NCBI GenBank assembly: GCA_963675665.1
Contig: OY776510.1
Location: 4,768,001 to 4,832,000, forward strand
Reading direction: 5' to 3'
Source: Spirochaetia bacterium
Lineage (GTDB): Bacteria; Spirochaetota; Spirochaetia; UBA9216
DNA: 64,000 bases
Numbering within the stretch: the stretch's first letter is position 1; every line of letters starts with the position of its first letter. Below are positions 41,066 through 62,012 of the stretch, one piece after another. The notes under the pieces are model-generated. The model was not told the origin of the DNA and did no database searches. It saw only the letters and a program-made list of their open reading frames with translations. A program made the translations under genes and the position numbers.

Positions 41066-41083
41066 GATTATATTCGATAAAAC

Positions 41084-42912: not shown

Positions 42913-42929
42913 CTTGAAGGAGTTTTATA

Positions 42930-43760: not shown

Positions 43761-43770
43761 GGAGTAAAAA

Positions 43771-44532: not shown

Positions 44533-44548
44533 TGAATTGAAAACAATT

Positions 44549-44580
44549 GCCCGGAGCCCCAACTCCGGGCTTTCAATTTT
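44549..44580 (+). terminator. Intrinsic terminator after kduD
   Basis: GCCCGGAG-N6-CTCCGGGC followed by TTTCAATTTT. Confidence 0.7.
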
Positions 44581-44629
44581 ATAATTAAATGATATAATTT
44601 TCAGGATTTTATAAAATACGGAGAGTTAA

Positions 44630-45391: not shown

Positions 45392-45603
45392 ACATTAAAG
45401 CTTTAAAAGTAATCAATATTCTGCTGCTTATAGATTTTCTTGTTATTGGAGTTACGGCGATACTGAATAATATGATACAGGCAACCGGGTTATATTTTAT
45501 ATTTCATGCTGTTCCCGGTTTCCTGTTTCTGGTACTTGCAGTCTGCCATTTAGTTCTAAACAGAAAATGGCTAAAAACCAATTACTTCTCTAGAAAGAAA
45601 TAA
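45388..45603 (+). CDS. Small 2-TM membrane protein, DUF4405-like
   Basis: Two hydrophobic helices; H..PG.LF...CHLVLN.KW pattern; ATGA overlap with iclR. Confidence 0.6.
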   Translation: MNIKALKVINILLLIDFLVIGVTAILNNMIQATGLYFIFHAVPGFLFLVLAVCHLVLNRKWLKTNYFSRKK

Positions 45604-46051
45604 CGGTACTGTCGCGGTACCGGTGCATGGATGTGAAATTATCCCGTGCTCCGTATGCAACTATTACAGGAAGTTTACTTGCCCCGGATCCTGTAAAATC
45701 CGATTTTAAAACTGTAAACTTAACAGTCGTAACTCCGTCCGTTTCTTCTACTTCATAAACAACAGGTCTCTGGATATCTGTTTTCTGATGACCATGCCCC
45801 TTACCAAGATGTTCTTCAAAAAAAGCTTCTCCGTCTTTATTATATCCTATAAATATTGCGGATCCGTCCATTCTTGAACTTCCGAGTCCAACAGCTATCC
45901 AGCCCTTTGTCTCTGCCTTCAGGCTGATAGTCAGCTCATCGCCGTCCAAACCCCATTCAAGGCTGGCTTTTTTAAGTTCAATCAGGTTCTCTGCTGTGAC
46001 AAAACCGGTAATAATGAAAAGCAACAATGATACAATCAACAATTTCTTCAT
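45590..46051 (-). CDS. Exported DOMON-domain protein
   Basis: Signal peptide; GWIAVGLG...M motif and C-terminal MH (candidate Met/His heme ligands). Confidence 0.75.
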   Translation of the reverse strand: MKKLLIVSLLLFIITGFVTAENLIELKKASLEWGLDGDELTISLKAETKGWIAVGLGSSRMDGSAIFIGYNKDGEAFFEEHLGKGHGHQKTDIQRPVVYEVEETDGVTTVKFTVLKSDFTGSGASKLPVIVAYGARDNFTSMHRYRDSTVISF

Positions 46052-46165: not shown

Positions 46166-46816
46166 TTATTTAAAATAATAACTGTTCAGATGTATGGATA
46201 CCAATTTTTCAGCCTGCTCAACATTATGCTGATTGACGGCTTCGATGATATCCAAATGGAGGCTGACGCTGGATTTAATAGACTCGGGGGAGAGATCTTC
46301 GATATTCCGTAACAGCTGCACTTTCAGGTCAAGTTTTTCTACAAAATCCTGCAGATATTCATTTCCGGAATATTCCGCCATCTTGCGGTGGAATTTACTG
46401 TCGGCTTCAAAACACAGGGCGACTTCATTTTTTTCAGCATATTCAATAGTTTTTTCAGCTATCTCTCTAAGCTCATGATACTGTTCTTCCGTTATTTTTT
46501 CTGACAGCAGTCTGACGGAAAGCGTATCAAGCTGGATTCTAAGCAATCCTATATCAGTTCTGTCTTCCGGGCGGATTCGGACTACCTCCGCATATTTTCT
46601 TGGATAAATAGTTACCAGGCCGTTCTTTTGAAGTTCACGCAAGGCTTCACGAATAGGAGTTCTGCTGACCCCGAACACATTGCCGATAGCTTCTTCAGGT
46701 ATTCTCTGTCCGCCTTTCAGCTCCTGGGTTATAATCAACCGCTTGATATGGGAATATACCTGTGCTGAAAGATTGCTCTTTTCTATATTTTTTTTTACTT
46801 CCTTCAGATCTGCCAT
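46166..46816 (-). CDS. GntR-family (FCD) regulator
   Basis: GVSRTPIREA, DSKFH...SGN; own promoter TTTACA-17-TATACT 9 nt before the ATG. Confidence 0.92.
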   Translation of the reverse strand: MADLKEVKKNIEKSNLSAQVYSHIKRLIITQELKGGQRIPEEAIGNVFGVSRTPIREALRELQKNGLVTIYPRKYAEVVRIRPEDRTDIGLLRIQLDTLSVRLLSEKITEEQYHELREIAEKTIEYAEKNEVALCFEADSKFHRKMAEYSGNEYLQDFVEKLDLKVQLLRNIEDLSPESIKSSVSLHLDIIEAVNQHNVEQAEKLVSIHLNSYYFK

Positions 46817-46860: not shown

Positions 46861-46900
46861 AAAAATTCCTGCCTGCCCATCCAGGCAGACAGGAATTTTA
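46861..46900. terminator. Intrinsic terminator ending the GRE operon
   Basis: AAAATTCCTG.CTGCC-N6-GGCAG.CAGGAATTTT; U-tract on the minus strand. Confidence 0.75.
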
Positions 46901-46904: not shown

Positions 46905-47696
46905 TCAATCCATAAATTTCGGTTGATTGGTATGGGCAGTAAGCGCCCCGTCAACAGCAATATTGGTTCCGCTTACAAAGCCTGCCAGGTCGGAGGCCAG
47001 AAAAAGGACAACTTTGGCGACATCTTCAGGTTCGGCAATTCGTCCCATCGGATACTGTGCTCTGAATATTGAATCACATTTCTCTTCTCCTATGGAAGCA
47101 GCACATGCATCATACATTGCAGTTCTCATTGAACCGGGACAAACTGCATTTACTCTAATATTATCTTTTGCATGATCCAGCGCCATTGCCCTTGTCATGT
47201 TCGTAACAGCACCCTTGGAGGTATTATATGCTACGCAGGCGTAATCTCCAAACAAACCGGATACTGATGAAGTATTTATAATTGAGCCGCCGCCCCGTTT
47301 TCTCATCTGCGGAATAAAAGCCCGCGAAGTAAAAAAGAAACCTCTGACATTAACTGCATTCACAATATCCCATTCGGCTGTTGTAGTATTTTCAGCTTCA
47401 GCTCCTTTCAGAATGCCTGCATTATTGAACAGAACATCACACCCGCCAAATTCCGTCTCAACATAATCAGCAACTGAATTGACTTCGTCTTCTTTCGAAA
47501 TATCTGATTTAATGAAAATAATTTTACCGCTGCTTTCTGATTTAAGTTTCTCTGAAAGAGCTTTTCCGGCACTCTCATTGAGACCGGTAAAAATAACATT
47601 TGAACCTTCACGGGCAAATAAGTTTACAGATGCTGCCCCCAGACCGGATTCACCGCCTATAACAACAACATTCTTTCCCTTCAATCCTGATTCCAT
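46905..47696 (-). CDS. Short-chain dehydrogenase/reductase
   Basis: GGESGLG, NNAG, YNTSK, VCPG. Confidence 0.92.
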   Translation of the reverse strand: MESGLKGKNVVVIGGESGLGAASVNLFAREGSNVIFTGLNESAGKALSEKLKSESSGKIIFIKSDISKEDEVNSVADYVETEFGGCDVLFNNAGILKGAEAENTTTAEWDIVNAVNVRGFFFTSRAFIPQMRKRGGGSIINTSSVSGLFGDYACVAYNTSKGAVTNMTRAMALDHAKDNIRVNAVCPGSMRTAMYDACAASIGEEKCDSIFRAQYPMGRIAEPEDVAKVVLFLASDLAGFVSGTNIAVDGALTAHTNQPKFMD

Positions 47697-47710
47697 CTGT
47701 CTCTCCTTTT

Positions 47711-48643
47711 TTATTTTCGTTTTAGAAGTTCAAACGCCTTGACTTTCACATTGGCGGCTGTCAGCCCGTAAGCTTCCTGAAGCCATGCAACATCTCCGAC
47801 CTGGCCGAACAGATCGTTTATACCCACACGGGCCATTGGAGTGGGCAAGTTTTCACCAAGAACCTCTGCAACCGCAGAACCGAGACCGTTAATCACCTGG
47901 TGGTTCTCACAGGTTACTATCGCTCCCGTTTTTTCGGCATATTCTATAATCAGTTCAGCATCTATCGGTTTGATCGTATGCATATCGATCACTGCAGCCG
48001 ACACCCCTTCTTTCTCAAGCTCGGCTGCCGCTTTTACCGCCTCCGGGACCATCACGCAGCCGCTTGCTATTATGGTAAGATCACTTCCATCCTTTATAAC
48101 TTTCCCTTTACCCAGCCTAAAAACCTCACCGTCGCTGTAAACTGCCGGGCTTGCCTTCCGGTTCAGCCGCATATAGGTGCATCCTTTATGGTCTTTTGCC
48201 TGAGGAACAAGCGCAGCAAGAGATGCTCCGTCGCAGGGTTCATATACAACCAGCCCGGGGATATTTCTCATAAGGCCAATATCCTCAAAAGGCATATGTG
48301 TTCCGCCGTTAAGCGCCGCAAGAATACCGGGATCGGAACCAACAAGGTTTACATTCTGCTGCGCGTAGTTACCGGACAGGAAAAACTGGTCGTATGCCCG
48401 GCGCGCGGCAAAACATGCAAAAGTTGAGGCAAAAGGAATCTTTCCCGTCGCAGATAATCCCGAGGCTATACCTACCATATTGGCTTCAGCTACTCCGCAG
48501 TTTACTATTCTGTCCGGATAGGCCTCCTTGAACGGTGTAGTTCCGGTTGCCCTCATAAGGTCCGCTTCCAGAAGGACTATTCGTTCATCTTCCTTTGCAA
48601 GCTCAATAAGTGTTTCGGTAAATACCGCTCTCATTTCTTTCAT
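47711..48643 (-). CDS. Transketolase C-terminal subunit (split transketolase)
   Basis: GVAEANMVG, GGTHM, TIKPID, ENH..INGLGS. Confidence 0.93.
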   Translation of the reverse strand: MKEMRAVFTETLIELAKEDERIVLLEADLMRATGTTPFKEAYPDRIVNCGVAEANMVGIASGLSATGKIPFASTFACFAARRAYDQFFLSGNYAQQNVNLVGSDPGILAALNGGTHMPFEDIGLMRNIPGLVVYEPCDGASLAALVPQAKDHKGCTYMRLNRKASPAVYSDGEVFRLGKGKVIKDGSDLTIIASGCVMVPEAVKAAAELEKEGVSAAVIDMHTIKPIDAELIIEYAEKTGAIVTCENHQVINGLGSAVAEVLGENLPTPMARVGINDLFGQVGDVAWLQEAYGLTAANVKVKAFELLKRK

Positions 48644-49482
48644 TATACCGTCTCCTTCTCAAGCACAGCTACGGCATCCTCTGCTTCTTTCAAATCGAAC
48701 TTCATGTTGTGGCTTGCTACCTGCCCTTCTCCCGGAGCAAAACCTTTCGCTTTTACCGTATCAAGAATTATCATCGACGGCCTCTGAGACTCAGCCTGTG
48801 CATTCTGCACTGCCCAATCCAGTTCCCTGAAATCATGGCCGCTTACCCGCTGTACATACCAGCCGAAGGACAGCCATTTTGATGTAATATCCGAAATGTC
48901 CATTACCTCGTGCATATAACCGTCAAGTTCCATCTTGTTGTAGTCGGTAAAAGCAATAAGATTGCCGAGTTTAAACTGGGCGCCGGCCATTGCAGCTTCC
49001 CAGATTTGACCTTCATTACTTTCGCCGTCGCCTATTATCGTATAAATTGTGTTGTGATATCCGTTCATCCGATCACCTAGCGCCATGCCGATCGAACATG
49101 AAAATCCCTGCCCTAAAGACCCGGTCGTCATATCAATTCCGGGCGTCAGGTTCATGTCGCAATGGCTCGGCAGCCTGGAACCGCCCTTATTCAGCGTTTC
49201 AAGCCAGGATTCGGGGAAATATCCCTTGTCGGCAAGAATGCTGTACAACGAGGGGCCGGCATGACCTTTCGACAGTACAAGCTTGTCCCTGTCAGGTCTT
49301 TTCGGATTGTTCACATCGATGTTCATATGCCTATAGTACAGCAGAGTCAGCGTATCCACTATCGACATCGCTCCCCCTATGTGCCCTACACCGAGGTTTC
49401 CCATTGATAAAATCGTCATTTTTCGTATCTGTTTTGCTTTGGTTTTCAGCTCCGATACATCTTTTTCCGTCAGCATTTCCAT
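48643..49482 (-). CDS. Transketolase N-terminal subunit (split transketolase)
   Basis: GHIGGAMS, LSKGH, TGSLGQG, GDGE..EG..WEA...DYN ThDP motif. Confidence 0.93.
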   Translation of the reverse strand: MEMLTEKDVSELKTKAKQIRKMTILSMGNLGVGHIGGAMSIVDTLTLLYYRHMNIDVNNPKRPDRDKLVLSKGHAGPSLYSILADKGYFPESWLETLNKGGSRLPSHCDMNLTPGIDMTTGSLGQGFSCSIGMALGDRMNGYHNTIYTIIGDGESNEGQIWEAAMAGAQFKLGNLIAFTDYNKMELDGYMHEVMDISDITSKWLSFGWYVQRVSGHDFRELDWAVQNAQAESQRPSMIILDTVKAKGFAPGEGQVASHNMKFDLKEAEDAVAVLEKETV

Positions 49483-49488
49483 AACTCA

Positions 49489-50481
49489 CTACTTCCTGTA
49501 CAGAAACCAGCCGTCATTCTCATTTCCGCCGGTTTCTTCCTTATATGTTTTGGTTCCCGAGCCTCCAACGTTAACTGTAAAGCCCCGGGTTTCTGCAAGC
49601 GAAACGCAAAACGCAAGCTGCGCAGCATTTTCTTCTTTCCTGTCCTTCAGCCGATACTCATAATCAAGCATTTCATACTTTGACGAGCCTATCTGATGAA
49701 ACGGCATCAGGTGTATTTCTTTTACTCTGTCCAAACTTTCACAGATATCAAGTATTCCGCTGAATTCAGTCTTGTCATCATTAACTCCCGGTATCAGGGG
49801 TATTCGGGGAATTATCTCTATGTTATGTCTCGAAGCTTTCTTTAAATTTGAATAAATCAGTCTTTTATCCGTTCCAATCCATTTGCGGTGCAAATCGTTA
49901 TTGGCAAGCTTGATGTCATAAAGCAAAAGATCGGTAACGGGTAAAATCTTCTCAAAACTTTCCCACGGCACATGTCCGCAGGTTTCAACAGCTGTACCGA
50001 ACCCTTTCTTCCTAATCACACTGAATACGTCAAAGACAAAATCAGGGTATAGCAGCGGTTCGCCGCCGCTGAACGTAATGCCTCCGCCGGTATTTCTGTA
50101 GACGACTTCATCCTTAAGCACTGTTTCACAGACCGCCTCGGGGCTGTAAAGGCTTCCGGACATCTTGCGGGCGCCGAAATAACAGACATCTGTACATGCT
50201 CCGCAGTCTGTACAGACTGATCGATCTGTAACGGCAATTCCGTTTTTCATTTCTATTGCATTCGCAGGGCAAACTGAAACACAAGCTCCGCAGCCGGTGC
50301 AGAGTGCATTATTCATCATCAGAACAGCAGTATGCCTGAAGGTTTCGGGGTTCTGGCACCAGCTGCACCGCAACGGACATCCTAGAAAAAATACTGTGGT
50401 TCTTATCCCGGGGCCGTCGTGAACCGAGAACCTTTGAATGTTTGATATATAGACTGAATCAGACACAGCCGCCCTTATCAA
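49489..50481 (-). CDS. Glycyl-radical enzyme activase (radical SAM with ferredoxin insert)
   Basis: HDGPGIRT, GCPLRCSWCQNPE, CTGCGACVSVCP and CTDCGACTDVC, SGGEP; GTG 50466 is an alternative start. Confidence 0.95.
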   Translation of the reverse strand: MIRAAVSDSVYISNIQRFSVHDGPGIRTTVFFLGCPLRCSWCQNPETFRHTAVLMMNNALCTGCGACVSVCPANAIEMKNGIAVTDRSVCTDCGACTDVCYFGARKMSGSLYSPEAVCETVLKDEVVYRNTGGGITFSGGEPLLYPDFVFDVFSVIRKKGFGTAVETCGHVPWESFEKILPVTDLLLYDIKLANNDLHRKWIGTDKRLIYSNLKKASRHNIEIIPRIPLIPGVNDDKTEFSGILDICESLDRVKEIHLMPFHQIGSSKYEMLDYEYRLKDRKEENAAQLAFCVSLAETRGFTVNVGGSGTKTYKEETGGNENDGWFLYRK

Positions 50482-52810
50482 ACCTTTTGATTATATTATC
50501 CTGCTGTACCGGCGACATTGCTATAAAGTAGGCTGAAAGTCCGCCCATCCTCACACGAAGGTCCCTGTGCATTTCGGGATTTTCTTTCGCATCTTTCAAA
50601 TCTTCAACGTTTGTACTTGTTACCGTAAGTATCTGCCCCCCGAGATCGCAGAAAGACTTTATAAGTCCGTTCAGCCTGTCGATGCCGGCCTCGCCTTCAA
50701 ATTCATTCGAATTGATTGCAAGATCAAGCGGACAACCGCTGTAATATTTCAACAGAATCGGTTTCGTAATACTTTTAATGACTGCTGTAGGCCCTTCAAT
50801 ATCAGCTCCAGGATTGGGAGAATAGTTCGGAGCAAGCTGGGCCCCGTTTGTTCTGCCGTCTGCGGAAGCGGCAATACCCCGTCCAAGTACGGCATAATTC
50901 TCAAATGTTCCGATACCGACCGGAAACTTCATTGTATCCTGCTTTTTATTCCAGCGGGCCACACTGTCTTCAAAATCCTTCATAACCCGGATTCCAAGAG
51001 TATCAACAAAATCAATATCATTACCGAATTTTGGAACTTCATTAATAACCCGGGCCCTCAGACGTTCAAACCCTTTCCAGTTGTTCCGTATGGCTTCTAT
51101 AAGCTCTTTAAGGCTGACCGACTTGTCTTCAAAAACCAGCTTCTTTATTACAGCAAGCGAATCTACCGTATTCGACAGGCCTGTGATAAGAATCTGATGA
51201 AAGATGAACCTTGCCCCGTCCTGGCTGAGGTCTTTTCCTTTGTCAATACAGTCGTCAACAATTGACGACATGAGAGGATCGGGTGCTATCATATATGAAA
51301 GACCGAAATTCTCAAGTCTGCGATGACATTGAAAATCTATTCTTGCATCTACCTGCTTTTTATAAGCCGCATAGAATTCTTCAAAATTTTCGAGTTTTTC
51401 CGGATCCCCTGTATCAAGTCCTTCCGCAGCATCTCTGAGCAGACTTTTCCCTCTGAAAAGCACCCATTCAAGGCACTGCAGATTCATAACATGAGCATAA
51501 CTGAAATAACTCTTTCCGGGGATGAGAGTTTCCCAGCACCCGTCGTTTGTATAATGCCTTGCATCTTCAACCGGAACCCCGATATCAACAAATCCGGGCA
51601 CTATGAAATCATCGTTATAAATCATCGGCTCGCCCTGTCCGTAACGCAGGACTTCTGCTATCTTGCGCCTGAATGATTCAGGGCAGTTTTTATGAACTCG
51701 GGCGCCCATTGTAGGCATTAAAAGCTTCATATCATGCATAATGTCAAGAATGAGATAAGAAAGCTCGTTGGTTACATCATTTCCGTCGGAATCAGTACCT
51801 CCGACTATACAATTCATCAGCCAGTCGTTGCCGGACTGCCCGTAATTAAAGTTTGCTTCAGAATCATCGTCCTCATCGTCCTGCCAGGTTAGCCCCCGCT
51901 GGTCGTAACCTCCGGTAATTGTTTTTGCCGCTGCTTCATCCGGCACATTTCCCTGTGAGAACAGCCCGAAAGTATAATGATTTTCGGCTTTACGGGTATC
52001 GGTTATTATCCTTTCGTTACATTTGACGAGAAAACTTCCGATTATATCAATCGCCTTTTCTTCGGTTATCCGGCCTTCTTCAAGATCCCTTTTAAAATAC
52101 GGATAAAGATACTGGTCGGCCCTTCCGAGCGGAACATATTCACCTCCGCTATTTACAAGGCAATAAGTGAACCAGTATGCCTGGGCTGCTTCCTGCAGAG
52201 TTTCTGATGGATTCTCAGGCACCTTTCGACAGATTGCAGCCATTTCAAGAAGCTCAGCCTTTCTAACAGGGTCTTCTTCTTCACGCGCCAAAGTTTCGGC
52301 GGCGGCCGCATGGCGATTAGCGAAAGCTACAAGCCCGTCAAGAGCAACCAGCATTGCACGGTATTCAGTCAGAGCTTCTTCGTTCGGTTCTGCAGCAGCC
52401 TTCCGGACTTCAGCAGCAGCGTTAATTTTTGCGCGCACGCTGACGACACCGTCATTAATAATTTCCCACCATTTAGGAGGATGATGTCCCCATACTGAAG
52501 CTTCATTCAGCATATACCTCGAGGCCTGAAAACCTTCCTCTTCGGTATAATAGATAGGCATTATCGTACCCCATCCGACTGAATTCTGATTGGGATTGCC
52601 GCAAATAAGCTCATCATCCTTAATAATTGCCGGAAGATGCTCGCCCATATATTTCTGGGCCATTGCCTTGCGGACTACAAGAGGTTCTTTTTCAAGCTCA
52701 CTGTTTCCATCCAGAATGTTCACATCCAGAAAATGCCAGGTGCCGGGATCATGATACTCGACATCAAACAGCCTTTTCTGAATTTTTTTTAGCCGTGAAG
52801 TAAGATCCAT
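50459..52810 (-). CDS. Glycyl radical enzyme (PFL superfamily) of unknown activity
   Basis: 783 aa; GRADQYLYPY, Cys loop DGCWE, PKFGND, ASADGR, Gly loop LRVRMGGLSAYF; coupled to the activase. Confidence 0.93.
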   Translation of the reverse strand: MDLTSRLKKIQKRLFDVEYHDPGTWHFLDVNILDGNSELEKEPLVVRKAMAQKYMGEHLPAIIKDDELICGNPNQNSVGWGTIMPIYYTEEEGFQASRYMLNEASVWGHHPPKWWEIINDGVVSVRAKINAAAEVRKAAAEPNEEALTEYRAMLVALDGLVAFANRHAAAAETLAREEEDPVRKAELLEMAAICRKVPENPSETLQEAAQAYWFTYCLVNSGGEYVPLGRADQYLYPYFKRDLEEGRITEEKAIDIIGSFLVKCNERIITDTRKAENHYTFGLFSQGNVPDEAAAKTITGGYDQRGLTWQDDEDDDSEANFNYGQSGNDWLMNCIVGGTDSDGNDVTNELSYLILDIMHDMKLLMPTMGARVHKNCPESFRRKIAEVLRYGQGEPMIYNDDFIVPGFVDIGVPVEDARHYTNDGCWETLIPGKSYFSYAHVMNLQCLEWVLFRGKSLLRDAAEGLDTGDPEKLENFEEFYAAYKKQVDARIDFQCHRRLENFGLSYMIAPDPLMSSIVDDCIDKGKDLSQDGARFIFHQILITGLSNTVDSLAVIKKLVFEDKSVSLKELIEAIRNNWKGFERLRARVINEVPKFGNDIDFVDTLGIRVMKDFEDSVARWNKKQDTMKFPVGIGTFENYAVLGRGIAASADGRTNGAQLAPNYSPNPGADIEGPTAVIKSITKPILLKYYSGCPLDLAINSNEFEGEAGIDRLNGLIKSFCDLGGQILTVTSTNVEDLKDAKENPEMHRDLRVRMGGLSAYFIAMSPVQQDNIIKRFDKGGCV

Positions 52811-52831
52811 TGTTACCTCCTTGGAATTCAG

Positions 52832-53803
52832 CTATTTAATCGATAAATGCCGGCTTGACCGATCGACAGTCAGATAAACCGCAAGAATCACTATAAAGCC
52901 GAAAACAACCTGCTGCCAAAAAGTATCGACACCTACAACCTGCATACCGTTATTGATTATGGTAACAACTGCCACGCCTATAATGGTTCCAAGCACACCG
53001 CCCTTTCCGCCTGACAACGCTGTGCCTCCCAAAGCAACAGCGGCAACAGCCATCAGAGTGAACGGTTCACCTACTGTCGGGATCCCGCTTTTGAGTTTGG
53101 CTGAAAGAAGGATTCCCATACCCGCACTTCCGATACCGCATACAGTAAAAACCATCATTTTTGTAAAGTTAATCCTGACGCCCGCCATTCTTGCACCGCG
53201 CTCATTTGCCCCGATTGCATAGATGTATTTACCCAGCTTTGAGTAATTCAGCAGAATGTAACATATTGCAACAATGCTCAGAGCAACAATCAGCACAAGC
53301 GGGAAGAATCCGAATTTAATTTTCGACCAGTTTATAAAATTCCAGAGTTTCAGGTTTATCTGGACCGGTGCGCCGTGCGAGATAACATAGGCAACCGACT
53401 GCCAGACAGACATCGCGCCGAGAGTTGCGATAAACGACGGAATCTTTACCCTTGTATACACTATTCCGTTGATAAGCCCTGCGACAACTCCGAAGGCTAA
53501 TGCCCATAGATATGCCATTGCACCCCAGTGCGGCAGCGTAATTGCGAAAATGACGGAGGCACATGATGCTATGGAACCGATAGAAAGATCTATAGACCCG
53601 ATGAGCAGTACCATGGTTACACCGCAACCCATTACCAGCAGCGGCCCCATATCAGTAAGCAAATTCTTGATATTGAATAAACTTAAAAAGTTTTTATTAA
53701 TAATGGTGAATACTGCAACCAGAATAATTATCGCAAACAACGAAATATAATCCATGAAATTTTTACGTATTGCACCCTCTTTCTGAAACGCCTTTATCAT
53801 CAA
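52832..53803 (-). CDS. Sugar ABC permease
   Basis: GSIDLSIGS, IPSFIATLG, AVALGGTALSGG. Confidence 0.92.
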   Translation of the reverse strand: MMIKAFQKEGAIRKNFMDYISLFAIIILVAVFTIINKNFLSLFNIKNLLTDMGPLLVMGCGVTMVLLIGSIDLSIGSIASCASVIFAITLPHWGAMAYLWALAFGVVAGLINGIVYTRVKIPSFIATLGAMSVWQSVAYVISHGAPVQINLKLWNFINWSKIKFGFFPLVLIVALSIVAICYILLNYSKLGKYIYAIGANERGARMAGVRINFTKMMVFTVCGIGSAGMGILLSAKLKSGIPTVGEPFTLMAVAAVALGGTALSGGKGGVLGTIIGVAVVTIINNGMQVVGVDTFWQQVVFGFIVILAVYLTVDRSSRHLSIK

Positions 53804-53811
53804 CAGGCCTC

Positions 53812-55338
53812 CTACATCATGTGCTTGATGATATCAAGCTGCTCAGGTTTATTATTCTTTGAGGCATCGATTTCCTGAGTAATCACACCATCTTTCATGA
53901 CAATTATTCTATTGCTCAGCCCGATTGATTCATCAAGCGTATCTCCAAGCAGAATAACTGACAGCCCCCTGTTCGCCATTTCTCTTATCAGTTCGTAAAT
54001 TTCCTCTTTTGCACCTACATCAACACCACGCGTCGGGTGATTAAGGATCAGAACCTTGCTGTCGGAGGCCAGCATTCTCGCAAATACAATCTTCTGTGCA
54101 TTTCCGCCCGAAAGCGAACTGACTTCTTCATTATAATCAGTACATTTAACATTAAGGGTATCTATCCAATGCTGTGAAATTTCCTGCTGTTTCTTTTTGG
54201 AAATAAGCAGTCCGCTCTTCGCTGCGTCAAGGTTTGCAATTGTAATATTTTCAAGGATGCTGAGAAGTCCGAGAATCCCCTCTTCTCTCCGCTCTTTCGG
54301 TACCGAAAGTATCCCTTTCTTCAGCGCATCATGCGGTTCGGAAAATTTTACATCCTTTCCTTCAAATTTTATTCTTCCTCTCGACGGAGCAATGTCTCCT
54401 GAAAGTATTGAACATACATCCTCTTTTCCGGATCCTACAACACCACAGAAACCCAGAATTTCGCCTTTATGCAGTTTAAATGAAACGTCCTTGAATCTTC
54501 CTGTAAGCCCGATATTATCGACTTCCAGAACAACATCTTCCTGAGGATCCGACTGATCGGCGATCTTAAAGTACTCACCGGTACTGGAGCGTCCTACCAT
54601 CAGCTCATACAGCTTGTTCTCCGTCACATCATCTCTTTCAAGCTCGCCTACCCTGTAACCGTCCTTGAATACATAAACACGGTCCGATATCTCCATAATT
54701 TCATCAAGACGATGAGAAACAAATATTATTGAGTGCCCCTCATTCTTCAGTTTTCTGATCTCGGTAAAAAGCGTCTGGATTTCAGCATCACTCAATACAG
54801 AAGTCGGTTCATCAAGCAGAATGAGTGAATTTTCCTCACTGCTGGCCCTTGCCGCATTCAGAACCTTTGATATTTCAACCATCTGCCTGCGGGCAAAGTT
54901 AAGGTCCTTAATCTTGGTTTCGGGTTTGATATTAGTGATACCTACATCGCCGAGAACCTTGGAGGCTTTCTGATACATTGCCCTCCAGTTTACAAATCCG
55001 CCTTTCAGAAACTTTTTTTCTTCACCAAAGAAGATATTCTGCCCGACAGTAAGGTTGGATACAAGCGACTGTTCCTGAAAAACCATACCCACGCCCATTT
55101 TATTACCTTCACGAGGTTTTTTTGGAGCGTATTTACGACCGCGCATCTCCATTGAACCGTTTGAAGGCGGCTGAACACCAATAAGGATTTTAAGAAGCGT
55201 AGATTTACCGGCGCCGTTCTCTCCGACAAGCCCCACGATCTCTCCCTTTTTAATGTCCATCGATACACCCTGAAGCGCTTTGGTACCGGGGAAAAATTTC
55301 GAAACATTATTTACTTTAAATAGTACATTATCCGACAT
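53812..55338 (-). CDS. Sugar ABC ATP-binding protein
   Basis: GENGAGKST, LSGGNAQK, second Walker B variant LILNHPTRG. Confidence 0.92.
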   Translation of the reverse strand: MSDNVLFKVNNVSKFFPGTKALQGVSMDIKKGEIVGLVGENGAGKSTLLKILIGVQPPSNGSMEMRGRKYAPKKPREGNKMGVGMVFQEQSLVSNLTVGQNIFFGEEKKFLKGGFVNWRAMYQKASKVLGDVGITNIKPETKIKDLNFARRQMVEISKVLNAARASSEENSLILLDEPTSVLSDAEIQTLFTEIRKLKNEGHSIIFVSHRLDEIMEISDRVYVFKDGYRVGELERDDVTENKLYELMVGRSSTGEYFKIADQSDPQEDVVLEVDNIGLTGRFKDVSFKLHKGEILGFCGVVGSGKEDVCSILSGDIAPSRGRIKFEGKDVKFSEPHDALKKGILSVPKERREEGILGLLSILENITIANLDAAKSGLLISKKKQQEISQHWIDTLNVKCTDYNEEVSSLSGGNAQKIVFARMLASDSKVLILNHPTRGVDVGAKEEIYELIREMANRGLSVILLGDTLDESIGLSNRIIVMKDGVITQEIDASKNNKPEQLDIIKHMM

Positions 55339-55347
55339 ATCTTCCCC

Positions 55348-56358
55348 CTATTTCATTATTGTTCCGCGACCCCGGGTTACGGAGAGAGAAACAGCGATTA
55401 TAATTATTATCCCCTGAATAGCCGCCTGAAAATACGGATCAACTCCCATCAGGACCAGTCCGTTCTGCAGTACCGTTACTATCAGGGCACCAAGCAGCGT
55501 ATTCATTACACCGCCTTTACCGCCCGACAAGGCCGTTCCGCCAACAACAATTGCAGTCATAACCGGAAAAAGGTTTCCTTTGCCGACCAGAACCGTTCCG
55601 CGGCCCAGTCTTGCGGAACCTATGATTCCGCCGAGACCTATGCACAACCCTGACCATGTAAAAGCAAGAATTTTAACTCTGTCTACATTTATACCAGCCT
55701 GACGCGGAATCGATTCATCATCACCAATGGCATAAACATAGCGTCCGAAAGGAGTGTATTCCTGTAAAATATATGCAATTATAAATACCACAAATGCTAT
55801 CCATGTCAGAATGGGAATTCCGAGAAATTTATTCAACGCAATCCCTCTGAACATACTATCCTGAATTGTAGCAGGTATTCCGCTGTAAGTAATAAGCGCA
55901 ATGCCGGCCGCAACACTGGACATGCCGAATGACACCATAAAGGAAGGGATTTTTGCCTTCACCTGGATAAAACCTGTAACAAATCCGGCGGCTGCTCCTA
56001 TCAGGACAGTTATCACTATTCCCATCAACCCAAGATCCATTGCAGTTTTTGTATTTGCTACAAGAAGACTGACGACAGCCGCTGTCAGCCCCATGACCCC
56101 GTCTACCGATAAATCAATACTTCCCATCAGAACAACAAAAGTAACCCCAAGCGAAACTATCAGCGGTACTGAAAGCTGAGCCAGTATTGTTATAAAATTT
56201 GTACCGGATATAAAATCTTTATTTAAAATACCAAAAATACCGATTATTACGAGCAGTACAATAATCGGTGCTATCTGGGTAACTCTGTTACGCTGATTTT
56301 CGCGTTTTACCCTTGCCGCAAACTCTTCAGCTATCGACAAATCAGTAGCATTACTCAT
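55348..56358 (-). CDS. Sugar ABC permease
   Basis: GSIDLSV, IPSFM, AIVVGGTALSGG. Confidence 0.92.
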   Translation of the reverse strand: MSNATDLSIAEEFAARVKRENQRNRVTQIAPIIVLLVIIGIFGILNKDFISGTNFITILAQLSVPLIVSLGVTFVVLMGSIDLSVDGVMGLTAAVVSLLVANTKTAMDLGLMGIVITVLIGAAAGFVTGFIQVKAKIPSFMVSFGMSSVAAGIALITYSGIPATIQDSMFRGIALNKFLGIPILTWIAFVVFIIAYILQEYTPFGRYVYAIGDDESIPRQAGINVDRVKILAFTWSGLCIGLGGIIGSARLGRGTVLVGKGNLFPVMTAIVVGGTALSGGKGGVMNTLLGALIVTVLQNGLVLMGVDPYFQAAIQGIIIIIAVSLSVTRGRGTIMK

Positions 56359-56383
56359 TTTTTAGAACCTCCATAAAAACTGT

Positions 56384-56413
56384 TGAACAGGCCCCGTTTC
56401 CGGGACCTGTTCA
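56384..56413 (-). terminator. Stem-loop 3' of the SBP gene (stabiliser or attenuator)
   Basis: TGAACAGG.CCCG-TTTC-CGGG.CCTGTTCA. Confidence 0.55.
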
Positions 56414-56419
56414 GAGATG

Positions 56420-57481
56420 CTATTCCATAGCCTTGTAAATGATTGACCAGTAATCTTCAAAGTCGAATGTTGGCCGACCTTCGATATAACCGGCTACATA
56501 ATCGTCAATATTTTCGGTGCTGACCAGCAGACCTGCAGTATTGAACATCATCTGTTCTTCAGTCATCTTTGTTGTATCAATGTAACCCTTGTATGCAGCA
56601 TAAGGAAGTGCAAGACCGAATCCGCCCTGAAGCCATGGATTAACAGAAACTGTTGCAACCATATCGCCGTTCTGGATGGCTGTAATTGCGTCAGCAATAC
56701 CGTCAACTCCGGCTACAGCTACTTTACCATTGAGCCCTTTTGCTCTAAGCGCTTCTACAACTGCAAGAGCCATACTGTCGTTCGCAACCCAGATACCGTC
56801 GATATCGCCGTAGGTTGAAAGCCATGTTTCAGTAATTTCAAGAGCTTTTGCGGGGTTCCAGTCGCCGGCCTGATCATCAATCAGTTCTACACCGGGGTAT
56901 TCGCTGAGAGCTTTCTGAAGGCCTTTAAATCTGTTTATTGCAGCAGAGTTTGCAAGCATTCCCTGGATAGCAAGAATCTTGCCCTTGCCGGGAGTTTTAA
57001 AGCTGTCGAACATAGCTACAGCAATGTCATGACCCGATTTCTGATCATCCGGAGACATGTGAAATACATAGTGTGGATAGTCTCTCGGGTGCAGGCCTTC
57101 TGCGGTGCTCCATACTGTCATCCAGTAAACACCTGCTTCTTCACATATTTCTGCAATTGCTGCAGCGTTAGGTGCATTATTCGGGTCTACATAGAGGATG
57201 GTATCTTTTCCACCTCTTGCAATTGCAGCTTTGATGTTGTTAAGCTCTTTTTCGTCGCTACCATCGCTGACAAGAAGCTGGACATCAATTGTATCCTCGT
57301 CTACTGAATCAGCAAACATCTTGGCGCCCTCTTCAACAGAGAGGTAATACGGATTAGACAGACTTCGGATTGATACTCCGGCAAGTACGGTCTTCGGTCC
57401 TGTCTCCTGCTGCCCTCCGGCAAATACAGGTGCTGCCAGTACTGCGAGTACGATTAATGCAGCAATTACCATCTTTTTCAT
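56420..57481 (-). CDS. Sugar ABC substrate-binding protein
   Basis: VFAGGQQE N-terminus; IRSLSNPYY, ANDSMALA, GVDG. Confidence 0.9.
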   Translation of the reverse strand: MKKMVIAALIVLAVLAAPVFAGGQQETGPKTVLAGVSIRSLSNPYYLSVEEGAKMFADSVDEDTIDVQLLVSDGSDEKELNNIKAAIARGGKDTILYVDPNNAPNAAAIAEICEEAGVYWMTVWSTAEGLHPRDYPHYVFHMSPDDQKSGHDIAVAMFDSFKTPGKGKILAIQGMLANSAAINRFKGLQKALSEYPGVELIDDQAGDWNPAKALEITETWLSTYGDIDGIWVANDSMALAVVEALRAKGLNGKVAVAGVDGIADAITAIQNGDMVATVSVNPWLQGGFGLALPYAAYKGYIDTTKMTEEQMMFNTAGLLVSTENIDDYVAGYIEGRPTFDFEDYWSIIYKAME

Positions 57482-57493
57482 AAATTCCTCCGA

Positions 57494-58516
57494 TTAAGAT
57501 ATTTGTATAACAGGCTTTATAAGCCTGGTATCACCATTGACAAGTTCTGAAAAAACTTGAGGGCATTCATCAAGAGTATGAATGCTTACTACACCTTCAG
57601 TATTAATATGTCCGCCCGAAAGAAGGTTTATTGCTCCTTCAAAATCAACAGGTTCATAAACCCTTGTTCCCCTGATAGTCAGTTCTGCAAAATTCGCTCT
57701 GCGAAGATCAACATTCGTCTCCCCTTTTGCAATGCCTACCTGAACAACCGTTCCGCGAACCCTGGTATTGTCTATTGCAGACTGGTACCCGGTATTTGAC
57801 CCTGAAACTTCAAAAGAAAGATCCGGGCCGTTGCCGTTAAAAAAATCCTTAACTGCAGCAGGGAAATCAGTATCAACAGGAGAGACAACATTAATCCCGT
57901 GCTTTTTTAACAACTCCAGGCGGGCTTCGTTTATCTCCGATACCAGCAGCCTGTTAACACCGGAGGATTTAAGAACTTCAGACAACAGAATCCCGATGGG
58001 ACCGCCGCCGATAATAAAAACATTATCGCCGGGCTTGTACCCGGAAAATCTGATATCATGCAGAGCTACTGCACAGGGTTCAACAATACCGCCGAGCAGC
58101 CGCGGCATTTCTTCCGGCAGCATGTGAAGTTTTTGCTCATTCACGACTGCATACTCGGTAAAACCGCCATGAGTATCTACGCCAAGCAGCCTGAGACTGC
58201 TGCATACATGAGGAAACCCGTTACGACAGGCATAACATTTTCCGCAGGACAGAAGTGCATCAGCGGCTACAAAATCCCCTTTCGAGAACCTCGTCACATC
58301 TTCGCCGGCTTCTTCTATTACTCCGCAGAATTCATGTCCGAGGACCATCGGCGGAACTGAACGGTTTTCGTCAAACTTACCCTTGTAGATAGCAAGATCG
58401 GTTCCGCAAATACCGGAAGAAACTATTTTCAGAAGAACTTCGTCTTTTTTGTATTCTGGTACCGGGATTTCACCAATCGTCATTTCTCCGGCTCCGGTCC
58501 ATATGGCAGCTTTCAT
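57494..58516 (-). CDS. Zn-dependent (MDR) polyol/sugar-acid dehydrogenase
   Basis: GICGTD, GHE, CGKCYAC...C, GGGPIG. Confidence 0.9.
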   Translation of the reverse strand: MKAAIWTGAGEMTIGEIPVPEYKKDEVLLKIVSSGICGTDLAIYKGKFDENRSVPPMVLGHEFCGVIEEAGEDVTRFSKGDFVAADALLSCGKCYACRNGFPHVCSSLRLLGVDTHGGFTEYAVVNEQKLHMLPEEMPRLLGGIVEPCAVALHDIRFSGYKPGDNVFIIGGGPIGILLSEVLKSSGVNRLLVSEINEARLELLKKHGINVVSPVDTDFPAAVKDFFNGNGPDLSFEVSGSNTGYQSAIDNTRVRGTVVQVGIAKGETNVDLRRANFAELTIRGTRVYEPVDFEGAINLLSGGHINTEGVVSIHTLDECPQVFSELVNGDTRLIKPVIQIS

Positions 58517-58571: not shown

Positions 58572-58687
58572 ATTGTATACTTTATAACTGAGTTGTCAAG
58601 CTTTTTTGACATTAATTTATTTAGTGAGCAATTGTGTGTAATTTTTATACAGCCTTGACAGAAATACTGTATATTTTATATAAAATA
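58572..58687. promoter_or_regulatory. Divergent promoter region of the GRE operon and gntR
   Basis: Minus TTGACA (58599-58594)-16-TACAAT; plus TTGACA (58655-58660); palindrome TATTTTATATAAAATA (58672-58687); TGTATAYTTT boxes. Confidence 0.5.
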
Positions 58688-58720: not shown

Positions 58721-59386
58721 ATGGATAGTCATGCGATCTTTTCCGAAAACATTCAAACCCGAACTCTTCCTGATCAGATCTATGACTACATTAAAAGCAT
58801 GATAATGAATCTCGAGCTAAAGCCCGGCGATAAAATTCCTGAAGATAAAATAGCTGAAAACCTGGGAGTCAGCAGAACGCCTATTCGAGAGGCTATCCGA
58901 AAACTTCAGCAGTACGGTATTGTTGAAGTAGTTCCCAGACGATTTGCAAAAGTAGTTGAAATAGATATGAGGGCAAAACATAATCTTGGAGAAATAAGGA
59001 TCGCCATAGATAAAATATCAGTAAGACGCCTGGCCGAAATTGCAACCGAAGAGCATTGCGATGCTCTGAGAATGATTGCGGATAATTGCGTCAATCTGGC
59101 TGAAACCGGTAACAGGGTTGAGCTTTTCGAATGCGATTCGGATCTTCATATTGCAATAGCAGTTATGTCGGGGAACCCATATCTTGAAGATATAGTCAGA
59201 AGCCTCAATGCCAAAGTACAACTTCTTTTGGCCAATTCATATCATGGTATTAAATATTCAAGAAACGAACAGTTTTCACATTATAAAATAATAGAAAGCA
59301 TCAGGGCTCACGATGTTGAAAATGCTGTGGAACTTGCCGAAAAACACCTGAGAAAATTCTACTTCGCAGATGATCCAATGCTATAA
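58721..59386 (+). CDS. GntR-family (FCD) regulator
   Basis: GVSRTPIREA, DSDLH...SGN. Confidence 0.92.
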   Translation: MDSHAIFSENIQTRTLPDQIYDYIKSMIMNLELKPGDKIPEDKIAENLGVSRTPIREAIRKLQQYGIVEVVPRRFAKVVEIDMRAKHNLGEIRIAIDKISVRRLAEIATEEHCDALRMIADNCVNLAETGNRVELFECDSDLHIAIAVMSGNPYLEDIVRSLNAKVQLLLANSYHGIKYSRNEQFSHYKIIESIRAHDVENAVELAEKHLRKFYFADDPML

Positions 59387-59393
59387 TAACTGC

Positions 59394-60380
59394 ATGAATA
59401 ATATTACCGACAGAGTTATGAAAGCCATGCTCACTATGCAACGCTTTCCGTGGGAACAGGGCGCAGCTTCCCAGGCTGCACTTGAAATCGGAGATATTAC
59501 CACAGCGAAGCTGCTGGCACGCGACGCCGTCTTAAGGCAGTCACGTGACGGGCGCCTTGGCACAGCGTTCTACCGTGATGACATTGCTATTTTCGGCGAC
59601 GATATAACTGTGACTGATTCTTCAGCAAACGGTGAAGCCGTACAGTTTTTTGCCGATAAAGACGGCGATAAAGTTTTCCGTTCTGCCGCCGAACTGCAAC
59701 TCAGCTGGCTGACTGAACGTGCGCCAAAAACAAAATGCGGCGTACTCTGCCATGTAACAAATAATAAACAGGTTTGGGTAGATTCAATCTTTATGGCGCT
59801 GCCGTTTATGGTGCTTATGGGTGCATTCCGCGAGGCTGAACAGCAGCTTGATGGATTCTACCGTATTCTTAACGATTCCGAAACCGGGCTGCTGTCGCAC
59901 ATCTGGGATGAAGCAACCGGCGACTTCGCCTGCAGGGATTTCTGGGGGGTCGGAAACGGATGGGCCGCCGCCGGAATGGCCAAGATCATCCGATTTCTGC
60001 CGGATTCCGAAGCTTCATTCAGAGAGAAAACTATTGAACGAACAACCGGTCTTATCGACTCCGTACTGAGATATAAAAATAGCCAAAATCTCTTTAATAA
60101 CGTTATAGACCGGCCTGACAGTTTTATAGAAGTCAATCTGGCGCAGATGATATGCTACACAATATTCTCAGGAGTATCCGGGGACTGGCTTGATGCAGCC
60201 TATGCCGATGAAGCGCTGAAAATCAGAACTGCCGTGCTTGCCAACGTTGACGAGCTTGGACTTGTTCATAATATCTGCGGGTCACCGACATTTGCCGAAC
60301 CCGGAACCGCTGTTGAAGGTCAGGCGTTTTTCATCCTGATGGAAGCTGCTTACAGGAAGTATAAGCAGCACAATATATGA
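59394..60380 (+). CDS. GH105/GH88-like unsaturated uronyl hydrolase family protein
   Basis: WEQG, WVDSIFMALPF, GLLSHIW, FWGVGNGWAAAG; ATG 59394 lies 6 nt after TGcTATAAT (ORF track starts at 59370); no signal peptide. Confidence 0.8.
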   Translation: MNNITDRVMKAMLTMQRFPWEQGAASQAALEIGDITTAKLLARDAVLRQSRDGRLGTAFYRDDIAIFGDDITVTDSSANGEAVQFFADKDGDKVFRSAAELQLSWLTERAPKTKCGVLCHVTNNKQVWVDSIFMALPFMVLMGAFREAEQQLDGFYRILNDSETGLLSHIWDEATGDFACRDFWGVGNGWAAAGMAKIIRFLPDSEASFREKTIERTTGLIDSVLRYKNSQNLFNNVIDRPDSFIEVNLAQMICYTIFSGVSGDWLDAAYADEALKIRTAVLANVDELGLVHNICGSPTFAEPGTAVEGQAFFILMEAAYRKYKQHNI

Positions 60381-61899: not shown

Positions 61900-61983
61900 T
61901 TTACAACTCCTTTCGGCAGCTATAAAAGTCCTTCCTGAAACCACCACCAATATAACGCCATTTGAAAATATAGTTCAATAACT

Positions 61984-62012
61984 TTGACAAGTATATCATT
62001 TAATTGTATACT
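61984..62012 (+). promoter_or_regulatory. Sigma-70 promoter of the second kduI
   Basis: TTGACA-17-TATACT. Confidence 0.65.

Follow-up and report, generated by a model that had tools for sequence, protein, structure and literature searches.

A glycyl radical enzyme encoded with a split transketolase in a Spirochaetia bacterium: a candidate kinase-free route for imported polyols

Layout of the operon

We analysed a window of 64,000 nucleotides from a Spirochaetia bacterium (contig OY776510.1, positions 4,768,001 to 4,832,000 of the forward strand), in which an earlier note had pointed to a minus-strand operon encoding a glycyl radical enzyme (GRE) and its activase, a split transketolase (TK, with subunits TK-N and TK-C), a zinc-dependent medium-chain dehydrogenase (MDR), a short-chain dehydrogenase/reductase (SDR) and an ATP-binding cassette (ABC) importer. 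The ten open reading frames (ORFs) of this run, between 46905 and 58516, were all recovered with their positions unchanged, and the identities that had been given to them were confirmed at the domain level with Pfam and NCBIfam (Table 1). Neighbouring genes are separated by -23 to 61 bases, and the TTG start called for the activase overlaps the GRE stop by 23 bases.

The operon had been placed between one promoter and one terminator, and consensus matches to both do flank it. The promoter-like site, which is sigma-70-like, was the joint best of the 17 kb scanned, tied with a site at 61984-62012(+), and the terminator-like hairpin lies 16 bases past the SDR stop; in the same 17 kb, where 29.4 promoter-like and 15.3 terminator-like sites were expected, 36 and 21 were seen. 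The stem-loop behind the binding-protein gene is possibly a partial terminator, or an RNA stabiliser that keeps the binding-protein mRNA in excess. No Rfam riboswitch or other RNA family was detected in 44-64 kb of the window, and none of the 11 sequencing runs that contain this stretch is listed as an RNA run. As the note had observed, kinase, aldolase and microcompartment genes are missing: Pfam found no kinase, aldolase or bacterial microcompartment (BMC) shell domain in the operon or in 27.5-64 kb of the window, and the sole BMC shell genes of the genome lie at 370.8-373.1 kb, about 4.4 Mb from the operon.

Table 1. Genes and predicted signals of the operon and of the flanking genes discussed with it (window coordinates; aa, amino acids; ThDP, thiamine diphosphate)
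Feature	Position	Strand	Description
GntR/FCD-family regulator	46166-46816	-	Pfam GntR + FCD; just downstream of the operon
Terminator-like hairpin	46868-46889	-	8-pair stem (5 GC), T-rich tail; consensus match only
SDR oxidoreductase	46905-47696	-	263 aa; Pfam adh_short_C2 4e-61; transcribed last
TK-C (pyrimidine-binding + C-terminal domains)	47711-48643	-	310 aa; Pfam Transket_pyr + Transketolase_C
TK-N (ThDP-binding subunit)	48643-49482	-	279 aa; Pfam Transketolase_N 3.6e-45
GRE activase	49489-50481	-	330 aa as called; Pfam Radical_SAM + Fer4 (ferredoxin-like insert)
GRE	50459-52810	-	783 aa; Pfam PFL-like + Gly_radical
Second ABC permease, CUT2/ribose type	52832-53803	-	Pfam BPD_transp_2
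ABC ATPase, two nucleotide-binding domains	53812-55338	-	Pfam ABC_tran x2
ABC permease, CUT2/ribose type	55348-56358	-	Pfam BPD_transp_2
Strong stem-loop	56384-56413	-	13 pairs (8 GC), T-rich tail; after the binding-protein gene and ahead of the first permease gene
Solute-binding protein	56420-57481	-	353 aa; Pfam Peripla_BP_4
MDR Zn-dehydrogenase	57494-58516	-	340 aa; Pfam ADH_N + ADH_zinc_N; transcribed first
Promoter-like site	58572-58599	-	TTGACA-16-TACAAT, 11/12; just 5' of the first operon gene; consensus match only
Divergent GntR/FCD-family regulator	58721-59386	+	Pfam GntR + FCD
NAD(P)-aldehyde dehydrogenase (ALDH)	60415-61950	-	511 aa; Pfam Aldedh 1e-159; separate transcription unit

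The glycyl radical enzyme, the transketolase and their partners

Both GRE domains were found in the enzyme (PF02901, 1.4e-139; PF01228, 2.7e-15), and it stayed below every NCBIfam cut-off. The best equivalog models, HypD and HpsG, gave 393 and 392 bits against cut-offs of 1000-1100; the set of HpsG, HpfG, CutC, HypD and PflD gave 312-393 bits (cut-offs 1000-1109); and the characterised equivalogs as a whole, including the indoleacetate and hydroxyphenylacetate decarboxylases, gave 188-393 bits (cut-offs 1000-1150), so that the enzyme belonged to none of them. It also missed the PFL2/glycerol dehydratase subfamily TIGR01774 (440.8 against 678.2 bits, only the C-terminal 450 residues aligning well), which five other, ordinary GREs of the same genome passed.

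The Cys-x-Glu loop reads GCWE, and C425 and E427 are invariant among 18 family members of 60-84% identity, as are R754, G756 and G757 of the glycine loop. The same 18 proteins keep the motifs WGHHPP (107-112), NSGGE, NDGCWE, GIGTFENY and RMGGLSAYF, in place of which ordinary paralogues carry GH, GCVE and RVAGYS, and the polar loop residues that are invariant in the family are His, Ser and Glu; His109 aligns with a histidine kept in ordinary PFL2-type paralogues. The glycine loop RVRMGGLSAYF aligns with RVAGYSAYF of HypD, CutC and PflD, and the residue after the radical glycine is Leu, not the usual aromatic residue. An AlphaFold model (mean pLDDT 76.5, pTM 0.81) matched more than 40 solved GREs about equally in Foldseek, with TM-scores of 0.70-0.75 and identities of 22-26%, the top matches being the propanediol dehydratase 5I2G, CutC and the glycerol dehydratase 1R8W (TM 0.75). 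The activase passed TIGR02494 (329.3 bits, cut-off 174.35). An activase gene stands next to that of the GRE in 26 of the 36 orthologue loci, many of which break off there. Judged from its motifs and those of its relatives, the GRE is an intact enzyme of the Cys-x-Glu eliminase type that belongs to an uncharacterised clade. The note's two claims about it, that it falls in no characterised family and that it is a Cys-x-Glu enzyme served by a ferredoxin-insert activase, both held.

The transketolase domains PF00456, PF02779 and PF02780 are spread over two genes, whose nearest solved relatives are the halves of the split TK of Carboxydothermus hydrogenoformans (TK-C, 6YAJ, E 6e-83; TK-N, 6YAK, E 1.3e-70), followed by human transketolase. 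Neither half reached the transketolase equivalog NF004559 (TK-C 262 and TK-N 243 bits against 488), a miss that is expected because half-length proteins were scored against a full-length model. We take the four catalytic histidines of the N domain to be H37, H77, H110 and H258 of the human enzyme, and H416, E423 and D424 to be its substrate-channel residues. In an alignment to 4KXU, whose numbering reproduces H37, H77 and H110, TK-N keeps all four histidines and TK-C keeps the phosphate-binding arginines R318 and R474 (as R5 and R162). In the channel, His416 is replaced by Asp104, Glu423 by Leu111 and Asp424 by Asn112, and the position of S345 holds Ala in the window TK-C and Ser in most orthologues. 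If R318, S345, H416, D424 and R474 are the residues that bind phosphate or hydroxyl groups, as we assume, the canonical set is incomplete in the window TK. The C. hydrogenoformans enzyme shares the two-gene architecture, the catalytic histidines and both arginines with the window TK, but keeps the His and Glu-Asp where the latter has Asp, Leu and Asn.

The resulting signature, DP...[YFL]N, was found in 12 of the 13 TK-C genes beside GRE orthologues (the exception is locus L006), in three other cluster-borne transketolases of the genome, and in 120 of the 120 top database homologues listed; homologues of this TK type numbered 7523 proteins at E <= 1e-40. The presumed housekeeping split TK of the same genome keeps His...Glu-Asp. 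The signature is suggestive of altered substrate handling. Two of the five same-phylum genomes checked (G024 and G210) had the DP...N type as their only TK-like match to a canonical TK-C query, in one of them beside RpiB, which weakened the signature as a proof of unphosphorylated substrates.

The importer is of a sugar type by its closest models. The permease at 52832-53803 matched ribose and arabinose permease models best, and the ATPase the AraG, XylG and RbsA models, in both cases below the NCBIfam cut-offs. The nearest solved relative of the binding protein is 2RJO (E 1.4e-65), followed by ribose-binding and CUT2 binding proteins; 2RJO is named only as a Tat-signal protein and gives no ligand reading for the window protein, which has 48-63% identical copies in L001, L007 and L013. 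Among the oxidoreductases, the MDR, an enzyme of the polyol type, lay nearest to the threonine 3-dehydrogenase, scyllo-inosose 3-dehydrogenase and L-idonate 5-dehydrogenase models of NCBIfam, all below cut-off, and matched threonine, butanediol and sorbitol dehydrogenases in the PDB, while the SDR passed the glucose 1-dehydrogenase subfamily NF005559 (233 bits, cut-off 215) and stayed under the cut-off of the meso-2,3-butanediol dehydrogenase model (261.5 against 270 bits).

Orthologous and DERA-linked loci

A homology search returned numerous homologues of the GRE at 56-86% identity, which occur in several phyla. Among species genomes, 16 loci were located by a scan, spread over Spirochaetota, Clostridia, Christensenella, Enterococcus, Streptococcaceae and one deltaproteobacterial metagenome-assembled genome (MAG); a second scan, of metagenomes, yielded 329 related stretches, with 79 loci kept. 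The ORFs of the loci were clustered, the clusters were named by Pfam and NCBIfam on representatives, and the presence of partners was scored by tblastn. GREs of at least 54% identity were taken as orthologues, which left 38 loci, 19 of them with at least 12 kb of flank (the long loci). By record title, cultured carriers include Clostridium tyrobutyricum, C. algifaecis DSM 28783 and Faecalicatena faecalis.

The split TK was present in 13 of the 19 long loci, and deoxyribose-phosphate aldolase (DERA) with a ROK kinase in three others; no long locus had both and three (L001, L013 and L056) had neither. Aldehyde oxidisers, either ALDH or a tungsten-type aldehyde:ferredoxin oxidoreductase (AFOR), were found in 15 long loci, the MDR in 14, an ABC ATPase in 11, an iron-dependent alcohol dehydrogenase (Fe-ADH) in nine and the SDR in four, and loci lacking the ABC importer had major facilitator superfamily or sodium:solute importers instead. 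Across the orthologue loci TK-N, TK-C and MDR recur as a run, and outside the DERA-linked loci ALDH or AFOR lies no more than two genes from the GRE-activase pair in at least 14 loci. With the DERA-linked loci set aside, the TK accompanies the GRE in 13 of 16 long loci from Spirochaetota, Bacillota and the deltaproteobacterial MAG, and gene order differs between these lineages, so that a single operon passed down by descent does not account for the association. Conservation of the neighbourhood had been proposed in the earlier note as a check on its idea; the TK and MDR genes are indeed kept near the GRE, together with an aldehyde oxidiser and in shuffled order across phyla, the TK being frequent and not universal.

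In the DERA-linked loci L016 (F. faecalis), L050 and L053, the unit consists of genes for a GATase1-like protein, DERA, a binding protein, an ATPase, a permease, the GRE, its activase, a ROK repressor and a ROK kinase. Transketolase genes are missing from this unit, and so are dehydrogenase genes, those for ALDH and MDR included. The DERA copies score above the cut-off of the TIGR00126 equivalog (272 bits, and 175 bits in L070; cut-off 117). In a maximum-likelihood tree of 81 GREs, the enzymes of these three loci nest within the TK-linked clade, next to the Enterococcus/Streptococcaceae group, and they carry the same five active-site-loop motifs as the window GRE. A more distant GRE subfamily, represented by L070 (44% identity), is again found with an ABC importer, DERA and a ROK kinase.

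As no dehydrogenase occurs in the DERA-linked loci, the simplest reading is that the imported compound is itself the substrate of the GRE and that the product is a 2-deoxy-aldose. On this gene content, these loci favour a radical dehydration that comes first and has a 2-deoxy-aldehyde as its product. In them the GRE would turn the terminal glycol of an alditol into a 2-deoxy-aldose, the kinase would phosphorylate it, and DERA would split the phosphorylated 2-deoxy-aldose into acetaldehyde and a triose or tetrose phosphate. The note had envisaged radical C-O (or C-S or C-N) cleavage of a polyol, anhydro-sugar or sulfo-sugar to a deoxy-ketose or aldehyde; the DERA and ROK genes speak for the aldehyde among these options, and the sulfo-sugar option found no support.

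From these comparisons, one gene can be added to the system. Between the operon and the window ALDH gene, which the note had missed, lie a GntR gene and a GH88 gene. We counted the ALDH as a member because close copies (50-74% identical) directly adjoin the GRE-activase pair in five other loci (L001, L013, L014, L047 and L062). The two GntR/FCD-family regulators that flank the operon also have relatives in other loci: for the downstream one, L003 and L004 have copies of 51-54% identity next to their MDR/TK genes, and L007, L008, L014, L045, L046 and L077 have weaker ones (31-37%), and the divergent one has 27-35% identical copies beside the GRE in L010, L012, L013, L054 and L056. One or both probably belong to the GRE system. 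The regulators of the TK-type loci are FCD-type GntR proteins (ORF cluster 10, in 11 orthologue loci), and the DERA-type loci have a ROK-type repressor in their place. The FCD-type GntR family usually senses carboxylates.

Candidate pathway and competing explanations

The reading that we tentatively prefer, as plausible without being probable, is that the operon and the ALDH serve to break down a neutral polyol after import, anaerobically and without a kinase, the GRE making a 2-deoxy-aldose and the TK splitting a ketol derived from it. The polyol would probably be a pentitol or a hexitol. The ABC system would import the alditol, and the activated GRE would take a hydrogen from C1 of the terminal glycol and eliminate the 2-hydroxyl group to give the 2-deoxy-aldose, a step modelled on glycerol and propanediol dehydratases. 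The ALDH (AFOR in other genomes) would oxidise this aldehyde to a 2-deoxy-aldonate, an acid that the FCD-type GntR regulator may sense, and the MDR would oxidise the penultimate carbinol at the other end to a HOCH2-CO-CHOH- ketol. The TK would then move a C2 unit onto glyceraldehyde 3-phosphate, leaving xylulose 5-phosphate and a short oxo-acid, either malonate semialdehyde (from a C5 substrate) or 3-hydroxy-4-oxobutanoate (from a C6 substrate), and SDR, ALDH or Fe-ADH enzymes would reduce or oxidise the oxo-acid. The use of glyceraldehyde 3-phosphate as acceptor is also how the sulfo-transketolase pathway spares a kinase. In a neutral variant the 2-deoxy-aldose would become a 2-deoxy-alditol and then a deoxy-ketose that is split by the TK, with the aldehyde oxidised last. 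The data allow the acid route and the neutral variant equally.

Several observations fit the proposed order of steps. An ALDH or AFOR close to the GRE-activase pair in the non-DERA loci is expected if the aldehyde oxidiser takes the product of the GRE, and the catalytic histidines kept in TK-N together with the recurrent TKN-TKC-MDR run fit an MDR that makes the ketol donor of the TK. A neutral polyol as substrate fits the loops of the GRE, in which His, Ser and Glu are invariant and the two positions that correspond to the sulfonate-binding residues of IslA (which we take to be Arg189 and Gln193) are Gly108 and a residue that varies within the family. The acid route agrees with the FCD-type regulators, in view of their carboxylate sensing, and with the absence of ALDH and MDR from the DERA-linked loci. 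That the whole WGHHPP/GCWE clade consists of alditol dehydratases making free 2-deoxy-aldoses from sugar alcohols is a broader proposition, possible in our view and held with some doubt.

Of the known systems, the window system works most like the B12-independent diol dehydratases, namely the glycerol dehydratase of C. butyricum (1R8W) and the 1,2-propanediol dehydratase of R. inulinivorans (5I2G). They share its fold (TM 0.74-0.75), the Cys-x-Glu loop, the glycine loop and the ferredoxin-insert activase, and their chemistry is the one proposed here, that is, abstraction of a carbinol hydrogen, loss of the neighbouring hydroxyl group and an aldehyde product. The window GRE differs from them in being only 25-26% identical, in failing TIGR01774, in its loops (GCWE in place of GCVE, RMGGLS in place of RVAGYS, and the additional WGHHPP and GIGTFENY) and in its context, which lacks microcompartment and 1,3-propanediol dehydrogenase genes and instead holds a sugar importer, TK or DERA, and ALDH.

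A number of findings weigh against the preferred reading. The TK is out of reach in the long loci L001, L013 and L056, and its signature is no proof of unusual substrates; the enzyme may still work on sugar phosphates. The active-site pocket of the GRE model is unreadable, because pLDDT falls below 50 at 103-109, 221-224, 423-440 and 625-643, which are the active-site loops. A paralogous cluster 39 kb from the operon and outside the window (L033; 4846000-4864000 in genome G000) has an MDR, TK-N and TK-C that are 67%, 83% and 79% identical to those of the window, with the same TK-C signature residues, and lacks a GRE and an ALDH. It carries a glycerol dehydrogenase (442.8 bits, cut-off 336) and a glycerol kinase (693 bits, cut-off 590), as well as an Fe-ADH, an SDR, an ABM protein, two CUT2 ABC sets and an RpiR regulator, which suggests a polyol or ketose route in which neutral ketoses pass through the MDR/TK module and the C3 fragment left over becomes glycerol. 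GldA-type dehydrogenases beside the orthologues in L006 and L014 and an aquaglyceroporin in L009 likewise point to small diols. In L008, the genes for a 4-hydroxybutyryl-CoA dehydratase (1U8V, E 3e-228) and, in the same stretch, a 4-hydroxybutyrate CoA-transferase (3EH7, E 2e-153) lie between the activase and the TK genes, and one or other of the two is found in L001, L052 and L080. Two dehydrations separate 4-hydroxybutyrate from a fully hydroxylated C6 polyol, so that the GRE would have to act a second time (on 1,2,4-butanetriol or 3,4-dihydroxybutyrate, for example), or else the scheme is incomplete. Thiolase and 3-hydroxyacyl-CoA dehydrogenase genes were also considered as evidence for a C4 intermediate and set aside, as in L056 they are part of a standard butyryl-CoA operon with crotonase and acyl-CoA dehydrogenase.

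The MDR/TK pair of L033, with the neutral ketose and C3 fragment that it suggests, favours an alternative in which the GRE acts last, on what the TK leaves behind, and which we regard as rather unlikely. The polyol would be oxidised to a ketose by MDR or SDR, the TK would move a C2 unit onto glyceraldehyde 3-phosphate, and the leftover aldehyde (glyceraldehyde, glycolaldehyde or lactaldehyde) would be reduced to a diol (glycerol, ethylene glycol or 1,2-propanediol) for the GRE, a divergent small-diol dehydratase whose aldehyde product would be oxidised by ALDH or AFOR or reduced by Fe-ADH. L033 joins the near-identical MDR and TK to glycerol dehydrogenase and glycerol kinase just where GRE and ALDH would be, and the GldA-type genes and the MIP channel of L009 fit small diols as well; ALDH, AFOR and the Fe-ADH of the nine long loci beside a dehydratase make up the classical disproportionation set; propanediol and glycerol dehydratases are the best structural matches; and in two further clusters, L035 and L036, the TK has only an ABC importer and an AFOR with it, so that the aldehyde left by the TK is handled directly. 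This order of steps cannot, however, explain the DERA and ROK loci, which have neither dehydrogenase nor TK while their GREs nest in the same clade with the same loops, and it leaves the TK-less loci L001, L013 and L056 unexplained. Members of the wider GRE clade (28-52% identity) have sugar importers and sugar-type oxidoreductases as neighbours in every case, the known small-diol GREs are as distant as stated above, and Pfam found no Fe-ADH of the 1,3-propanediol type in the window operon.

L035 (G000 4360000-4378000) and L036 (1996000-2014000) are also of interest in themselves. Each combines an ABC importer, a DP...N split TK (57-60% identical) and an AFOR, L036 additionally having an SDR and a GntR regulator, which suggests a recurring design in this organism of import, cleavage by TK and oxidation of the leftover aldehyde. 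The genome as a whole carries about nine GREs, only one of them recognised by NCBIfam as a true pyruvate formate-lyase, and its split TK pairs number ten or eleven, with at least four signature types.

Quite unlikely, in our estimate, is that the operon holds two neighbouring but separate modules, one of GRE, activase and ALDH and one of MDR and TK, or that the TK is merely a pentose-phosphate enzyme, with no product or precursor of the GRE passing through it. This type of TK reaches far beyond the GRE in its distribution, as the 7523 homologues indicate, and is the sole TK-like gene found in two of the five genomes checked; it is missing from three of the 19 long GRE loci, the MDR-TK pair occurs in L033 away from any GRE, and RpiB, PFK and FSA genes stand beside some loci. 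Against such independence, the TK recurs across phyla in rearranged order in most of the non-DERA long loci, the window TK genes sit between activase and SDR in one tight operon, and the genome has a separate canonical split TK, presumably for housekeeping. TK and DERA are, moreover, mutually exclusive, as alternative solutions to one problem would be.

We consider it very unlikely that the GRE breaks something other than a polyol C-OH bond. The candidates would be the C-S bond of a sulfonate, cut by an IslA- or HpfG-like enzyme in a sulfo-transketolase pathway, a C-N bond, and the C-O bond in the ring of an anhydro-alditol, as cut by YbiW and PflD. The idea has a precedent in TK-dependent sulfoquinovose degradation with GREs acting on the sulfonate products, the only link between GRE and TK that we met in print. 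That sulfo-transketolase network resembles the window system in combining a split TK pathway for an unphosphorylated sugar with GREs (IslA and HpsG/HpfG); the window GRE lacks the sulfonate-binding residues, its aligned positions being Gly and a variable residue, and 27.5-64 kb of the window contains no sulfur-handling genes, with sulfite reductase, exporter and sulfoquinovosidase all missing. In L010 and L012 the TK-N and TK-C genes are parted by an FSA gene, and FSA genes neighbour ybiW and pflD in E. coli. YbiW and PflD (8ID7, 8ID0 and 8YJO) act, by their PDB titles, on 1,5-anhydroglucitol-6-phosphate and 1,5-anhydromannitol-6-phosphate. They are a precedent for GRE chemistry on sugar-derived, polyol-like substrates, but are only 22-25% identical to the window GRE, stand among its weaker structural matches, and are set apart by the ABC importer and the lack of a kinase in the window. 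Their substrates are phosphorylated and linked to the phosphotransferase system. In addition, 3,4-dihydroxybutyrate is the carboxylate analogue of dihydroxypropanesulfonate, and its dehydration to succinate semialdehyde would fit the 4-hydroxybutyrate genes of L008. The HpsG, HpfG, CutC, HypD and PflD models nevertheless scored far below their cut-offs, and the importer is of the neutral-sugar CUT2 type.

A variant of the D-apiose pathway, in which two oxidoreductases turn apiose into apulose for the apulose-4-phosphate transketolase AptAB and the GRE replaces the kinase branch, is highly improbable. The E. coli SE15 cluster (ECSF_RS02670-02715; PMC13001218) does resemble the operon in its CUT2 ABC importer, two SDR oxidoreductases and split TK, and pectin- and uronate-related GH88, KduI and KduD genes flank the operon. 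Identity to AptA and AptB, however, is no more than 35% for TK-N and 32% for TK-C, and AptB reads Asn...Pro-Leu where the window TK reads Asp...Leu-Asn. The apiose cluster encodes an FGGY kinase (none is in the operon) but neither a GRE nor an ALDH, the uronate genes around the operon do not recur next to the GRE in other genomes, and the closer AptB-like TK of the genome sits elsewhere, so that we rejected an identity with AptAB. The genes next to this other TK (L119; G000 2536000-2554000; LNPG...SLGPTH) encode an FGGY kinase, a DeoR regulator and a fucose-isomerase-like protein, and L119 is a candidate for an apiose-type or related kinase-dependent transketolase pathway.

In the literature, with subscription-only papers and supplements outside the scope, we found no description of this GRE type with transketolase, polyols, inositol, deoxyribose or 4-hydroxybutyrate. 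The note had known of no characterised GRE that feeds a transketolase, and apart from the sulfoquinovose link we found none either. We regard the GRE clade and the proposed pathway architecture as new, no published function of the clade having turned up in these searches. GREs are among the most abundant enzyme families without an assigned function in anoxic habitats and guts, and each newly assigned GRE clade has so far revealed a new anaerobic pathway (choline, hydroxyproline, isethionate and anhydro-alditols). If the WGHHPP/GCWE clade does consist of alditol dehydratases, there would be a route to 2-deoxy sugars that is independent of ribonucleotide reductase, and at least two undescribed anaerobic pathways, one without a kinase, in which a specialised TK splits a ketol made from the 2-deoxy-aldonate, as in the window, and one with kinase and DERA as in the sister loci of, for example, Faecalicatena. 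Carbon-carbon cleavage would follow a new logic, with TK replacing kinase and aldolase; fermenters, strict anaerobes among them, would use over-reduced polyols, including dietary sweeteners, with balanced redox; and biocatalysis could make 2-deoxy sugars out of cheap alditols. Being compact, the system of the window lends itself to testing.

Outside the orthologue set, two further contexts of the same GRE clade were observed. The nearest paralogue of the GRE in the genome (L037; G000 162000-182000) is 42% identical, belongs to the same WxH/GCWE clade, and is accompanied by an activase, an HAD phosphatase, an AFOR, a LysR regulator and a CUT2 ABC importer. A subfamily of 40-42% identity occurs in L095-L098, L107 and L109, some of which are contigs from human-gut metagenomes. 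Its gene context is constant, with a metallo-beta-lactamase-fold protein, activase, GRE, amidohydrolase, AtuA, an AtuA-ferredoxin-like protein and ALDH, and represents another uncharacterised pathway of this clade.

Around the operon, the window contains a set of uronate and pectin genes (40049-45391, 59370-60380 and 62039-62869), with a TRAP transporter, two KduI/IolB-family genes, KduD (above its NCBIfam cut-off), an IclR/KdgR-like regulator and GH88. Between the IclR and GntR genes, at 45590-46051(-), lies a gene for a DOMON-domain protein of 153 aa with no NCBIfam match. Finally, proteins of 607-609 aa that join an N-terminal ABC-ATPase-like domain to a C-terminal histidine-kinase ATPase domain, an odd sensor architecture, are encoded at 37195-39018(+) of the window and at 4121-5950(-) of L034, both adjoining a sigma-54 response regulator and lying near sugar or GRE clusters.

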